Shown here in pieces: positions 2,626-20,330 of a stretch of DNA of 32,308 nucleotides (positions are counted from its first letter, which is position 1; each line of letters begins with the position of its first letter). Under the pieces are notes generated by a model. The model saw only the letters and a program-made list of their open reading frames with translations. It was not told the DNA's origin and ran no database searches. Both the position numbers and the translations under genes were made by a program. Source of the DNA: a virus; the IMG/VR virus record IMGVR_UViG_3300045988_159943, positions 1 to 32,308 of that record, one strand, 5' to 3'.

Positions 2626-2640
2626 CAATACAAAATTATT
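2626..2640 (+). promoter_or_regulatory. conserved motif copy 1: CAATACAAAATTATT
   Basis: Exact 15-mer. 36 nt upstream of the 2677 start. Confidence 0.5.
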
Positions 2641-2676
2641 TTGAGAATAGATGGCTAGATTGATGGAGGTATAAAC

Positions 2677-3045
2677 ATGGAACATAAGCATAAATATTTG
2701 CTCGAAGTGTTTGATGAAAACGAGATGCCATTTCCAGTTAATCAATCAGGTTATGCTGATTTTGATGAAAGAGATACTTTCAATCTCAAATATACTTTAG
2801 TATGTTGGCTTTACGAAAGACTTAGATTTTTTCAAGAAGGAACATGTATTGATTTAAATTTTCATAAATTTGACATTGATGGAGAAGAATTAACTCAAGC
2901 TCAGTGCATTCAGAGAATGATTGATGACTGTAAGATTATTATGGTTGGCAATGACTGGGATGATGGTGAATTTAAGAAAATGGATGCAGCTAAAGATGAT
3001 TTGCTTAAGGTATTAGGTAAAGTTTATTGGGCTATGTGGTGGTAA
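2677..3045 (+). CDS. hypothetical protein
   Basis: 122-aa ORF with GGAGG RBS (2664-2668) 8 nt upstream. Conserved CAATACAAAATTATT motif lies 36 nt upstream. No recognisable domain. Confidence 0.5.
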   Translation: MEHKHKYLLEVFDENEMPFPVNQSGYADFDERDTFNLKYTLVCWLYERLRFFQEGTCIDLNFHKFDIDGEELTQAQCIQRMIDDCKIIMVGNDWDDGEFKKMDAAKDDLLKVLGKVYWAMWW

Positions 3046-3066
3046 ATAAGAAAGGATTGATTAAAC

Positions 3067-3516
3067 ATGACCTTAGAAGTTTTACAAAATGAAATGATTG
3101 CAGCTCTCAAAAGTGGAAATAAGTTTCGTAAGCAAGTAATTTCTACTTTGGTTGATTCTGTTAAGAGCGCAGCAATTAATAAGAATTGTAGAGATAATAT
3201 CACAGAGGACTTAGTTGATGAAGTTCTATTAAAGTGTAAGAAGACATGTCAAGAAATGATTGATACTTGCCCTGCGGGTCGAGTTGATCTTCTAATTCAG
3301 TATCGGAATCAGCTTGATATTGTCAATGAGTTTGCTCCTGTATTGATTGCTGACGAACGAGAGATTAGTATGCTTGTTTCATCTTATGCGAGTGAGGCTG
3401 ATGTAGCACTTGTTAAGGCTAATCGTGGCAAGATTATGAAGATTGCCGCGGAGAAGTTGAAGGGCAAGGCCGATATGGGAATTGTAAGTAAGGTTGTTGG
3501 AGGAATGTTGGCATGA
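3067..3516 (+). CDS. GatB/YqeY-domain protein
   Basis: N-terminus LEVLQNEMIAALKSGNKFRKQVISTLVDSVKSAAINK and C-terminal GKIMKIAAEKLKGKADMGIVSKVVGGML match the YqeY/GatB C-terminal domain pattern. Confidence 0.55.
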   Translation: MTLEVLQNEMIAALKSGNKFRKQVISTLVDSVKSAAINKNCRDNITEDLVDEVLLKCKKTCQEMIDTCPAGRVDLLIQYRNQLDIVNEFAPVLIADEREISMLVSSYASEADVALVKANRGKIMKIAAEKLKGKADMGIVSKVVGGMLA

Positions 3517-3731
3517 AAAGACCTGTAGATAATTTTTGCAAATATGTATTACCCTGTGGATATTGCGAAAATACCGGTGCCCTATGTAAATTATTTAAGG
3601 ATGATAATAATCTAAATAAACATGAACACGATTGGGAACTTACAGGAGCTAATTGTTCAGATGAAGGCACCGAATTAGAATATACTTGTAAGAAATGTAG
3701 AGCTGTAATGAAGGAGAGTTATCCGAGATGA
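3513..3731 (+). CDS. small Cys-rich (zinc-ribbon-like) protein
   Basis: 72 aa with C-x2-C ... C-x2-C spacing (CGYC...CKKC). Overlaps upstream stop (ATGA). Confidence 0.4.
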   Translation: MKRPVDNFCKYVLPCGYCENTGALCKLFKDDNNLNKHEHDWELTGANCSDEGTELEYTCKKCRAVMKESYPR

Positions 3732-3937
3732 CTGAACAAGAATTCTGGGACTTAGAATCTCAATGGGAAGATACTTCTGAGTATCAAGAATATGAAGCAT
3801 ATTGTGACAAATACAAATCTTCTCAAAATGAAGAAGAGATTCAAGAATGTTGGCGGCTGTTTTGGAGAGCTCTTGATAATGGGATTGGAAAACAGTTGAG
3901 ATCCGAAAGACAGTTTTGGAGGATTATTATGGGATGA
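3728..3937 (+). CDS. hypothetical acidic protein
   Basis: 69-aa ORF, translationally coupled to neighbours. Confidence 0.35.
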   Translation: MTEQEFWDLESQWEDTSEYQEYEAYCDKYKSSQNEEEIQECWRLFWRALDNGIGKQLRSERQFWRIIMG

Positions 3938-4356
3938 AAAGACCTGATGTCATAGAATTTGTTGAAAAATATTTAGGAATAGAATTATTTGCATACCAAA
4001 AGGCGGTGTTACGTATGTTTGGCAAAGGTTTTAATAGTGTAACTATTAACGGGCAAACCATTACGTGTTCTGGCAGTAATATTTCTGTCATGAATGGTTC
4101 TGTTATTGTTGATGGAAAAGTTATCAAATCTGGTCTTGAAGATAATGTGAAAGTTGTTATAAATGGTGATGTAAACAAATTAGAGTGCGCTGGTTCTGTT
4201 GAAGTGCATGGCAATAGTGGAAGTATTGATTGCAGTGGCAGTTGTAAGGTCGATGGAGATGTAAGGGGGGATATTGACGCAAGTGGATCTGTTATGTGCG
4301 GCAATGTTTCTGGTAATATTGATTGTAGTGGAAGTGTAAGGTGTAGAAAGCAATGA
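3916..4356 (+). CDS. beta-helical repeat protein (bactofilin-like G/S/V repeats)
   Basis: C-terminal two thirds is a periodic G-S/N-V-x-V/I-x-G-x-V pattern ([19 protein letters not shown]...[53 protein letters not shown]), typical of beta-solenoid/bactofilin folds. True start may be the ATG at 3934 (MKRPDV...). Confidence 0.45.
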
Positions 4357-6299
4357 GTAAAGTTAATAGAGTTAAAGAATTAGTTGAAACACTAAATTAT
4401 CATAGAAATCTTTATTACAATGAATCTCGTCCTGAAATTTCAGATTTTGAATATGACCAACTTTTTGATGAGTTGTCTAAACTCGAAAAAGAAACTGGAA
4501 TCGTCATGTCTACTTCTCCTACGGTTACTGTTGGCTATGAAGTAAAATCAAGTCTGAGTAAAGTAAAACATAACCATCCTATGCTTTCTCTTGATAAAAC
4601 CAAGAATGTCGATGATGTGATTAAATTTCTTGATGGAAGAAACGGTATTGTGATGGCAAAGATGGACGGGCTTACTTGTTCACTGCGATATTTAGACGGC
4701 AAGTTAGTTTCTGCTGAGACGAGAGGAAATGGCGAAGTTGGAGAAGATATCTTACATTGCGCTAGAGTGATTAAGAATATTCCTTTAACAATCGAATGTC
4801 TTAATGAAGTAGTTATTGATGGAGAAGTTATCATTACATATGATGATTTTGAAAAGATTAATGCTATTTTATCAAAGGATCAGAAATATAAACATCCACG
4901 GAATCTTGCTTCTGGTTCTATTAGACAACTTGATAGTAAAATTGCGGCACAAAGAAATATGCAGTTTATTGCTTGGAAAATGGTTAAAGGATATAAAAAT
5001 AATTCTTTTTACAGTAGATTAATTCGCATGGCAAATTGGGGATTTGATATCGTCCCTGTTGCACCAATTCCAACAATAATGCAGAATAAACAACAGGTTA
5101 CAGAAGCAATTGATATAATGAAAGATTGGGCCAGCCAAAAGGGTTTTCCGATTGATGGCTGTGTATTTGGTTTTGATGATATAGCATATGGAGAATCTTT
5201 AGGAGCTACGGGGCACCATCTGCGTTCTCAACTTGCATTTAAGTTTTATGATGAAGTATATGATACAAAACTATTGTATATTGATTGGACTATGGGGAAA
5301 ACAAATTCTCTCAATCCTACGGCTGTATTTGAACCCGTTGATATTGATGGGACAGAAGTAAGTAGAGCTTCACTTCATAATCTTTCCATTATTAAATCTC
5401 TTGGTTTAACCAATAATTGTACCGTTAGAGTATATAAGGCGAATCAAATCATTCCACAAATTGATTCTTGCGAAAATGATGGTAATGGAGAAATTGAAAT
5501 TCCTAGTACTTGTCCTATCTGTGGTGGGGCTACAGCTATTCAGAAAGACAATGATTCGGAAGTGCTTATTTGCACAAACCCTAATTGTTCAGGCAAGCTT
5601 CTTGGTAGATTCGTTCATTTTGTTTCTAAAAAAGGTATGGATATTGAGGGGTTATCAGAGGCAACATTGGATTTGTTGATTGCCAATGGTTATCTTAATG
5701 AGTTTGAAGACATATATTATCTTTTTAACCATAAAGACGAACTTGTTAATCTACCCGGATTGGGCAAAAAGTCAGTTGAAAAACTTTTGAAGTCTATTGA
5801 AGAGTCAAGAAATGTAAAACTAGAAAACTTTATTTGTGCTCTCGGGATTCCCAATATCGGACTAACTGCATCTAAGACTATTTCAAAATATTGCAATGGC
5901 GACTGGGAAAAGTTTTATGACCTCATTGAACATACGAATGATTGGACTTTCCTAGATGATTTTGGGCAGGTAATGAGCGATAGTATGAACGAATATTTTA
6001 GTGAATATTTTGAGGACGTAGACTATCTTTCTATGAAAATGCATTTTATCATTCCAGAACAGAGTAGCGATACTTCTCTGAGTAATCTCAAATTCTGTAT
6101 CACAGGCAGTTTTTCACAGCCAAGAGATGAATTGAGAAAAAAACTTGAGAGCAAAGGTGCTAAATTTGTTAGTTCAGTAAGTAAAAATCTTGATATTCTT
6201 TTTGCGGGTGAAAAAGCGGGAAGTAAACTAACTAAGGCACAATCTCTTGGAATTAAGATTGCTAATGAAACAGAATTGTTACGAATGATTGGAGAATAA
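4353..6299 (+). CDS. ligA: NAD-dependent DNA ligase
   Basis: Adenylation motif KMDG (AKMDGLT), Zn finger CPICGG...C..C, HhH region, C-terminal BRCT-like domain (KFCITGSFS...). Length 648 aa. Confidence 0.9.
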
Positions 6300-6308
6300 T
6301 AACCAAAA

Positions 6309-19906: not shown

Positions 19907-19931
19907 TATATACAAATAGGAGTTGACATAA

Positions 19932-20123
19932 ATGCAAAACAATACACAATTTTATACCGTAACCGACATAAAAAACATCTTGACAATTGGAACAAATAAA
20001 GCGTATAATTTAGTTAATTCGGAAGGCTTCCCAAGTCTTCGTATTGGCAGAAAAATACTTGTCCCAAAAGATGAATTCGAAAAGTGGGTCAAAACATATT
20101 TGTACCACGAATATATATTATAA
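19932..20123 (+). CDS. xis: excisionase/AlpA-like HTH DNA-binding protein
   Basis: 63 aa. YTVTDIKNILTIGTNKAYNLVNSEGFPSLRIGRKILVPKDEFEKWV matches the Xis/MerR-type HTH_17 pattern (...I...P....GR...). Coordinates taken from the ORF track. Confidence 0.6.
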   Translation: MQNNTQFYTVTDIKNILTIGTNKAYNLVNSEGFPSLRIGRKILVPKDEFEKWVKTYLYHEYIL

Positions 20124-20130
20124 ATATAGA

Positions 20131-20153
20131 AGTGGGACAAAAATTGGGACAAT
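20131..20153 (+). repeat. pair of direct repeats (G/T)TGGGACAA: putative integrase arm-type/Xis binding sites, left arm
   Basis: GTGGGACAA (20132-20140) and TTGGGACAA (20144-20152), 12 nt centre to centre. Confidence 0.5.
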
Positions 20154-20221
20154 TTTTAAAGTATAACCTATAAAAGCGCATGAAAACAAGGGAGTAGGAG
20201 CCCCAAATGTATGCCTCCAAA

Positions 20222-20257
20222 ACCATCATTGTGGGTTCGATTCCTACATCCCCTGCC
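20222..20257 (+). other. tRNA 3'-end-like sequence (T-arm, acceptor 3' strand, discriminator, CCA): probable attP core
   Basis: GTGGGTTCGATTCCTAC forms a T stem-loop with the canonical GGTTCGATTCC loop, followed by ATCCCCTGCCA. No complete cloverleaf can be folded upstream, so this is a tRNA fragment, as expected for a phage attP that regenerates a host tRNA 3' end. Confidence 0.55.
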
Positions 20258-20270
20258 AAATAAAAATACT

Positions 20271-20305
20271 CGGGAAGCCTGATAAATCAGGGCTTCCTTT
20301 CTTTT
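20271..20305 (+). terminator. terminator-like hairpin following the tRNA-like segment
   Basis: GGGAAGCCTGA-TAAA-TCAGGGCTTCC (one bulge) followed by TTTCTTTTT. Resembles a host tRNA gene terminator carried within attP. Confidence 0.5.
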
Positions 20306-20318
20306 TGCCATAAATTAT

Positions 20319-20330
20319 CAATACAAAATT
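20319..20330 (+). promoter_or_regulatory. conserved motif copy 8 (CAATACAAAATT, truncated)
   Basis: Upstream of the TGcTATAAT element in front of int. Confidence 0.4.

Follow-up and report, generated by a model that had tools for sequence, protein, structure and literature searches.

Co-oriented 15-nucleotide repeats in the early region of an SPbeta-like gut phage as candidate operators of an MrpR-family repressor

The early genes of a virus recovered from a gut metagenome are preceded, time and again, by the same short A/T-rich sequence, and the question that this locus raises is which factor reads it, and whether it is read in DNA or in RNA. The window analyzed here is the whole stretch of 32,308 nucleotides (nt) of the virus record IMGVR_UViG_3300045988_159943 (IMG/VR; positions 1 to 32,308), and the element in question is a 15-nt motif with the core consensus A[AG]TACAAAATTA, which the original prediction had taken for an RNA-level or phage-specific signal. 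In our reading the motif is a set of asymmetric DNA operators, most likely for an MrpR-family master repressor of the phage, which would most likely hold early and replication genes off while the phage is dormant. This reading, which draws on comparison of sequences, we hold to be probable rather than secure.

The copies of the motif, together with the promoters and terminator-like hairpins beside them, are distributed over the window as follows (SD, Shine-Dalgarno sequence; aa, amino acids).

124..138, + strand: motif copy CAGTACAAAATTATT, within the gene of the RecJ-like protein, which is called as 574 aa on the source contig
2626..2640, + strand: exact motif copy, 6 nt after the stop codon of a 375-aa gene and 36 nt before ATG 2677
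6305..6345, + strand: terminator-like hairpin 3' of the NAD-dependent ligase gene, closing the upstream unit before the promoter and motif at 6350-6395
6350..6378, + strand: sigma-A-type promoter TTGATT-17-TAGTAT, read from the sequence, its -10 ending 2 nt before the motif
6381..6395, + strand: exact motif copy, at about -4 to +10 of the 6350-6378 promoter, then SD GGAAGGAG and ATG 6412 (SPOR/NAGPA protein)
9654..9668, + strand: exact motif copy within an operon, in the order TAA 9650-9652, motif, AGGAGG, GTG 9682
10258..10272, + strand: variant GAGTACAAAATTATA, right after a stop codon, then SD and ATG 10287 (DnaE-type polymerase)
13636..13664, + strand: perfect sigma-A promoter TTGACA-17-TATAAT with TG, its spacer filled by the motif
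13640..13654, + strand: exact motif copy, at about -31 to -17 of the 13636-13664 promoter
14018..14032, + strand: variant GAGTACAAAATTATT, right after a stop codon, then SD GGGAG and ATG 14051 (nrdD 5' exon)
17810..17824, + strand: motif copy CAATACAAAATTACT, in the last 28 nt of nrdG, then SD and ATG 17842
20272..20306, + strand: terminator-like hairpin with T-run, read from the sequence, its end 12 nt 5' of the motif at 20319
20319..20333, + strand: degenerate motif copy CAATACAAAATTCGA, spanning about -39 to -25 and with it the -35 position, 5' of the integrase gene

All eight copies listed by the original prediction were found on the + strand at their coordinates, and the ninth, at 124-138, had been missed. 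Four of the nine (2626, 6381, 9654 and 13640) match CAATACAAAATTATT exactly, and mismatches to it number one at 17810, two at 14018 and three each at 10258 and 20319; the copies at 10258 and 14018 make up the GAGTACAAAATTAT variant, and the one at 20319 retains just the 5' twelve bases. Seven of the nine copies are intergenic, though intergenic sequence makes up only about 5% of the + strand gene module (counted from the map of open reading frames, ORFs, and from gene calls), and the - strand of the window holds no good copy. The motif 11-mer is the commonest repeated 11-mer of the window; with at most one mismatch, the 11-mer TACAAAATTAT is matched 11 times against 3.9 ± 1.9 times in shuffles, and the 16-mer MARTACAAAATTATWG occurs three times against 0.01 expected. 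The motif is thereby confirmed as real, non-random, strand-specific and intergenic, and the earlier observation stands. It is also restricted to the early module. The source contig (European Nucleotide Archive ERZ27229646 k119_311009, 160,308 bp), with which the window shares 100% identity along the 13,045 bases of overlap with the fetched piece L151, carries three further copies in the 7.3 kb upstream of the window; the part of its early genes that was read (27.7 kb) thus holds 12 copies, five of them at or beside sigma-A-type promoters, and 19 kb of tail genes hold none.

The sequence contexts had been described correctly. Five copies (6381, 9654, 10258, 14018 and 17810) abut an SD, their 3' ends lying 13-18 nt before a start codon, while 13640 sits in a promoter spacer, 6381 starts 2 nt past a -10 and 20319 covers a -35. 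For 124, 2626 and 13640, the distance to any SD is 24-56 nt. The promoter around 13640 (TTGACA-17-TGnTATAAT) is the only 12/12 match in positions 1-20000, and the same architecture recurs in relatives. At 2626, TTTACA overlaps the 5' end of the motif, matching the placement of TTGACA at 13640, with no good -10 behind it; an extended -10 does follow the copy at 20319 (TGCTATAAT; TG at 20343-20344, -10 hexamer at 20346-20351).

What anchors the motif becomes apparent from the related phages, more than 30 of whose contigs, of 130-170 kb, conserve it. Three IMG/VR contigs encode a polymerase 76% identical to that of the window; two of these carry the motif five times each, before SDs, and the third carries one-mismatch variants. 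The locus L002, considered as a relative lacking the motif, was wrongly so considered, as it has the one-mismatch variants CAATACCAAATTATT and CAATATAAAATTATT at the same promoter positions. A scan for the exact 14-mer recovered at least about a dozen contigs of 130-157 kb from one metagenome with multiple copies each, and outside the family, among the matches listed, mostly chance single hits. Loci that were fetched independently of the motif contain 69 distinct copies, of which 64 are intergenic and 55 point the same way as the nearest ORF defined by a crude ORF caller; nine of the 14 exceptions represent one and the same site.

The anatomy of 120 copies with distinct flanks was surveyed, and three arrangements emerge, the first two of which are fixed promoter registers. 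About 17 copies lie in the spacer of a TTGACA-16/17-TATAAT promoter and start at -31, -29 or -28; at about -31 the CA of the motif is the CA of TTGACA, as in the window copy at 13640, and the others lie 2-3 nt further on. Several of these promoters directly follow a terminator hairpin, and the copies in their spacers are therefore outside the RNA made from them. In the second arrangement, at least 12 copies at no fewer than seven non-orthologous consensus promoters start 17-19 nt past the -10 (about +12 to +26), with a distance to the SD that varies from 0 to 19 nt; others start 2-14 nt past the -10, and both 6381 and the copy at L151 4130, which starts 19 nt after its -10, belong to this arrangement. 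The remaining copies have no promoter and occupy the gap from a stop codon to the SD that follows, mostly at 0-7 nt from that SD; in the window they are represented by 9654, 10258, 14018 and 17810. Wherever a promoter is present, the motif is thus anchored to the promoter and not to the ribosome-binding site (RBS), and this tie to promoter registers argues for action on DNA rather than on RNA. With relatives included, the earlier inference that the RBS, and not the promoter hexamers, fixes the place of the motif does not hold; what remains of the original interpretation is that the motif is no ordinary host promoter element but a phage-specific signal for a sequence-specific binder.

The candidate for this binder comes from a relative. 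In the locus L020, four motif copies fall within 1.7 kb around a gene of 306 codons that follows a tyrosine recombinase gene, an order resembling yopP-yopQ-yopR of phage phi3T. The 306-aa protein matches the Pfam family PF22822 (MrpR_N_CB) at E 2.4e-12, over the curated cut-off, and aligns over residues 2-289 with the solved MrpR/YopR chains (8a0a and 8bjv, about 1e-9; 9rd5_H, 4.7e-15); its HxxR box and first catalytic Arg look, by eye, to have been replaced. Metagenomes contain 183 homologues, many of them on contigs of 160-170 kb, and all 120 of those listed have both MrpR domains (PF22822 and PF22823, MrpR_C_cat). Among IMG/VR contigs, 24 carry the gene; 10 of the 13 motif-rich contigs are among them, and so is that of L001, a relative with 76% polymerase identity to the window. 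At all 24 loci the mrpR promoter reads TTGACA-nn-TATAATTTTGTACTG-TACAAT, with an inverted motif in the spacer, and three direct copies lie 3' of the gene. Locus L154, with a repressor 59% identical to that of L020, has an inverted copy with one mismatch at the same place in an otherwise different promoter, and the mrpR promoter copy is the only recurrent inverted one in the family. At the mrpR promoter of L153 there is just a degenerate copy, in direct orientation and 5' of the -35, and in L155 the motif is absent from the corresponding promoter. There, at L155 9850-10000, the two arms of a perfect inverted repeat of 14 bp, TTTCCAACATTTGT ... ACAAATGTTGGAAA, stand on either side of the promoter of a repressor 47% identical to that of L020, which suggests that a second regulator may act on the repressor gene in that phage.

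None of the window ORFs is MrpR-like, and the original prediction could not see the likely binder, an MrpR-family repressor that would be encoded outside the window. The integrase of the window was considered for this role and set aside: in alignments to integrase, XerA and XerD it keeps the catalytic R, HxxR, H and Y, and it looks like an active integrase. The partial palindrome that had been noted, CAATA-N6-TATTG, is indeed present at 6381 and 13640, but its symmetric 3' bases vary among relatives (TTATT, TTATA or TTAAT), and with the palindrome thus unconserved a dimeric binder can no longer be deduced from it.

We infer from these associations that the MrpR homologue binds the motif, that binding represses, and that operon-internal copies could stop elongation. 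In the lysogen, a repressor occupying the spacer of a consensus sigma-A promoter, as around 13640, would exclude RNA polymerase, and one bound just downstream of a promoter, as at 6381 and at the copies at about +12 to +26 in relatives, would block the open complex or promoter escape. The operon-internal copies (9654, 10258, 14018 and 17810) might serve as roadblocks to read-through, matched in orientation to transcription in the manner of the stoperators of mycobacteriophages, or else as extra docking sites for a higher-order assembly of repressor and DNA. Loss of the repressor at induction would then free all units together. That the co-oriented copies within operons are orientation-dependent elongation blocks by a recombinase-fold repressor, and hence an independent stoperator-like invention in 160-kb phages of gut Firmicutes, is a more speculative extension that we put forward only tentatively; under it, the inverted copy in the mrpR promoter would allow the repressor gene to stay on or to autoregulate while co-oriented sites are silenced.

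Several findings weigh against MrpR-operated control. The link between repressor and motif is one of association and homology, at about 25% identity to MrpR of the SPbeta group, and the mrpR gene was seen in relatives only; that of the window genome itself would lie in the unread 19-132 kb of the contig. The motif core is constant across repressor clades that are 47-100% identical; repressor and site do not covary at fine scale within the family, but only from one distant lineage to another. Simple occlusion requires neither the strict co-orientation nor the close fit to the SD (mostly 0-7 nt, in one case within the end of nrdG), and an added RNA-level or orientation-dependent role is possible. 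Finally, the phi3T element lies upstream of the -35, neither in the spacer nor downstream, so that the architecture differs from that of the experimentally studied case.

The explanation that survives best beside the MrpR repressor keeps the DNA site and changes the protein. The motif could be bound by another phage or host factor, be it a repressor, a delayed-early activator or a Q-like or RfaH-like antiterminator at promoter-proximal sites; in one variant, the -10-like hexamer AATTAT within the motif could pause sigma-A-bound polymerase at about +20. The promoter-anchored registers establish a DNA-level role without naming the binder, several unannotated small proteins adjoin motif clusters, strict orientation suits a directional contact with RNA polymerase, and the different 14-bp inverted repeat at the mrpR promoter of L155 speaks for another regulator in these phages. 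However, consensus promoters with TG extensions need no activator, and a dozen or more sites in 28 kb, including spacers and positions after stop codons, do not match the distribution of known antiterminator loading sites, such as those of lambda Q and nut and the ops element of RfaH. We also know of no host regulator box, among those of CodY, Fur, NrdR and LexA, that resembles the motif. That the MrpR gene has the motif in its promoter on 24 of 24 contigs and in L154, together with the SPbeta precedent (PMC10516654), favors MrpR, and we consider a different factor unlikely, if still worth keeping in mind.

Less probable again is a signal in the 5' leader of the RNA, whether a translational operator like those of T4 RegA, a start-associated enhancer like that of cluster K phages or an endonuclease site, the second and third kinds of candidate that the original prediction had offered being an RNase processing site and a translational operator. 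It gains some appeal from the facts that all good copies are on the coding strand, that five of the nine window copies abut an SD, that most operon-internal copies in the family end 0-7 nt before one, and that the copy at 17810 stays beside the next SD despite lying in coding sequence. Yet the roughly 17 spacer copies, many of them right after terminators, are absent from the RNA of those promoters and cannot be accounted for by a translational operator; the copy conserved in the mrpR promoter spacer is inverted; promoter-downstream copies keep their distance to the -10 (17-19 nt) rather than to the SD; and 124, 2626 and 13640 are remote from any SD, as described above. Nor does folding lend support, since 75-nt windows around the nine copies have no consistent fold (z-scores -2.0 to +1.2, with pairing of the motif bases differing between copies) and the motif regions match no Rfam family at gathering thresholds, which also leaves an RNase site with neither a conserved structure nor a family. 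We regard a signal in RNA as improbable.

It is harder still to credit the idea that the motif has no regulatory role and marks the boundary of cassettes, as a recombination linker by which genes, each with motif and SD, are shuffled among phages. The same motif does stand before unrelated genes in different relatives, and gene boundaries are marked exactly, in the order stop codon, motif, SD; but 15 bases are short for homologous exchange, the promoter registers, the absence from the tail module and the inverted copy at the repressor promoter are left unexplained, and shuffling at conserved sites is more plausibly a by-product of conservation than its function. Least credible of all is a promoter read by a sigma factor or RNA polymerase of the phage's own: high conservation of a strand-specific 15-mer before many genes would recall T7-type promoters and the middle-promoter box that had been proposed, but a start at or after the motif in SD-abutting copies would remove the SD or the leader, these copies leave no space for a downstream -10 plus leader, many copies lie inside or directly behind consensus host sigma-A promoters, and about 47 kb of this genome showed no gene for an RNA polymerase or a sigma factor.

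If control by the MrpR-family repressor is true, MrpR-based control of lysogeny, with its repeated operators, would extend to a widespread family of uncultured gut phages of 130-170 kb, with more than 180 MrpR homologues, having so far been studied experimentally only in SPbeta-group phages of Bacillus. It would provide these phages with a predicted operator consensus, as given above, and with a map of early promoters, and the motif would flag early transcription units and predict which genes are silent in lysogens. It would also offer a test case for a recombinase-fold repressor that blocks elongation inside operons; to our knowledge, the stoperator strategy has so far been known only from cluster A mycobacteriophages.

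The phage itself is a temperate, SPbeta-like phage of 160 kb. The ends of the source contig meet inside the window, at about 20290-20409, and their overlap of about 119 nt approximates the assembly k-mer; the genome was therefore assembled as a circle and is probably complete. Its temperate nature follows from the integrase, which keeps its catalytic residues and is adjoined by a tRNA-like 3' fragment. Window positions 1-21944 carry, on the + strand, a module for replication and nucleotide metabolism, with genes for a RecJ-like protein, an NAD-dependent ligase, a SPOR/NAGPA protein, an OGG-like glycosylase, a superfamily 1 (SF1) helicase and the DnaE-type polymerase, and further for nrdD, interrupted by a GIY-YIG ORF, nrdG, dUTPase, ThyX, a Xis-like helix-turn-helix (HTH) protein and the tyrosine integrase. 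Tail genes occupy 22205-32308 on the - strand, where the 970-aa ORF at 29367-32308 represents only the C-terminal part of a tape-measure gene that continues in L159 1-9938 and is called on the source contig as 4068 aa, an unusual length. Between the genes for the Xis-like HTH protein and the integrase, AAGTGGGACAAA occurs three times (20130, 20382 and 20395; region 20130-20406), and a tRNA-like 3' end (GTGGGTTCGATTCC...CCA) lies at about 20231-20258, where ARAGORN finds no full tRNA; the repeats look like arm-type integrase sites, and the tRNA-like stretch looks like an attP core matching the 3' end of a host tRNA.

Other features of these genomes deserve mention in their own right. The nrdD gene (span 14051-17311) is split by about 1 kb into the exons 14051-14707 and 15758-17311, with an ORF for a GIY-YIG homing endonuclease at 14851-15636; a match to Rfam Intron_gpI at 15532-15720 (27.3 bits, E 1.2e-4) falls under the gathering score of 50, and the insert is probably a divergent group I intron. 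The DnaE-type polymerase gene, uninterrupted in the window, is interrupted in L002 (10001-14414) by about 1 kb with a 268-aa ORF (12518-13324). On the source contig, 7 kb 5' of the window (L151 4161-6557), a 798-aa protein matches Pfam MVP_shoulder (major vault protein), a domain unusual for an early phage gene, and the gene has a consensus promoter and a motif copy in front. A second repeat, AATGCATTGCAA, occurs four times in L001 (21010-22640) around a small HTH-like ORF and an integrase-like gene, and adjoining these repeats, at about 21330, stands a palindromic double motif, AATACAAAATAATTTTGTATT. Megablast against phage records returned no close cultured relative. The nearest polymerase, at 46% identity, is that of Clostridium phage Amboise, which has neither the motif nor an MrpR match. 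The sole match that might name a host, a contig of 4 kb assigned to the bin 'uncultured Christensenella sp.', encodes a polymerase with 84% identity and is too weak for a host call.

The motif string was found in no phage paper of the literature searched, but several described systems share part of its layout. Phage T4 RegA acts on RNA, at A/U-rich sites that lie at the RBS of many early and replication mRNAs and overlap the start codon. The motif resembles these sites in being A/U-rich and in lying at ribosome-binding regions of many early and replication genes, but it is placed upstream of the SD, is found in promoter spacers as well and also occurs inverted; no RegA-like protein was seen. 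In cluster K mycobacteriophages, the start-associated sequence (SAS) and its extended form (ESAS) constitute an asymmetric 13-bp repeat, nearly always in one orientation, right upstream of the starts of many unrelated genes (PMC3203893). The SAS (GGGATAGGAGCCC) includes an SD-like GGAG, and its function and binder are unknown (PMC3203893). The motif described here, by contrast, lies 5' of a separate SD, and a large share of its copies is anchored to promoter hexamers, some of them at untranscribed positions; it does not qualify as a start-associated sequence as defined for cluster K.

Closer in layout are the operator and stoperator sites of cluster A mycobacteriophages, asymmetric sequences of 13-15 bp present in many copies and bound by repressors such as L5 gp71 (PMC9283540, PMC6550527). 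They too occur both at promoters and within operons, in the short gaps between genes, with an orientation that tracks transcription, and all window copies are likewise co-oriented. Their repressor, however, is a monomer with an HTH and a 'stoperator' domain, whereas the candidate here belongs to a family with a tyrosine-recombinase fold, and the host phylum differs. Among the proteins scanned, from about 47 kb of genome, there was none of the gp71 type, although no search was aimed at such proteins. On present evidence, the likeness appears to be one of layout and function only, and not of protein family.

The closest counterpart is found in SPbeta, whose master repressor MrpR (YopR) has a tyrosine-recombinase fold and has lost recombinase activity (Kohm et al. 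2023, PMC10516654; its role as a repressor was reported first by Brady et al. 2021, PMC8612738). Chromatin affinity purification sequencing (ChAP-seq) and electrophoretic mobility shift assays (EMSA) revealed that MrpR binds a repeat of 15 bp, SPBRE, in about ten promoter regions, one of which belongs to its own operon (PMC10516654). Like SPbeta, the window phage is a temperate virus of the siphovirus type with a large genome (120-170 kb) and an SPbeta-like replication module with a DnaE-type polymerase and RecJ, and its relatives match the YorF and YorH families and encode an MrpR homologue beside a tyrosine recombinase gene. The motif shares with SPBRE a length of 15 bp, an A/T-rich and asymmetric sequence, about ten or more copies, intergenic positions in early genes, co-orientation with transcription and a site at the promoter of the repressor itself, here seen in relatives. 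Differences exist nonetheless, as the candidate repressor is only about 25% identical to MrpR. SPbeta integrates via the serine recombinase SprA, whereas the window phage has an apparently active tyrosine integrase beside a tRNA-like attP.

Placement of the sites varies among MrpR phages as well. In phi3T, our scan brought up AAGAATAAAAATAAAAT as a co-oriented repeat; most of its copies lie immediately 5' of a -35 element, and one abuts an SD. The CAATACAAAATTATT of the window phage lies instead in the spacer, at about +12 or, within operons, between stop codon and SD. The Alicyclobacillus phage KKP_3916 (OQ846916.1, L160), which has an MrpR homologue and a related polymerase, carries a co-oriented repeat of its own, AAATGCAACAATAAGTG, in promoter spacers and abutting SDs (for example at L160 12016, 15770, 16119 and 19707), an element apparently undescribed so far; the same region contains a repeated palindrome, GCTTGTCAAGC. 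The sequence [CG]AATA[AC] is common to the motifs of the window phage family, phi3T and KKP_3916. Three distant MrpR lineages thus each have their own repeated co-oriented element, and the pattern therefore generalizes. Judged from this comparison, the system of the window phage would work like MrpR and SPBRE of SPbeta, homologous to it by its likely binder and different from it in the sequence of the motif and the placement of its sites.

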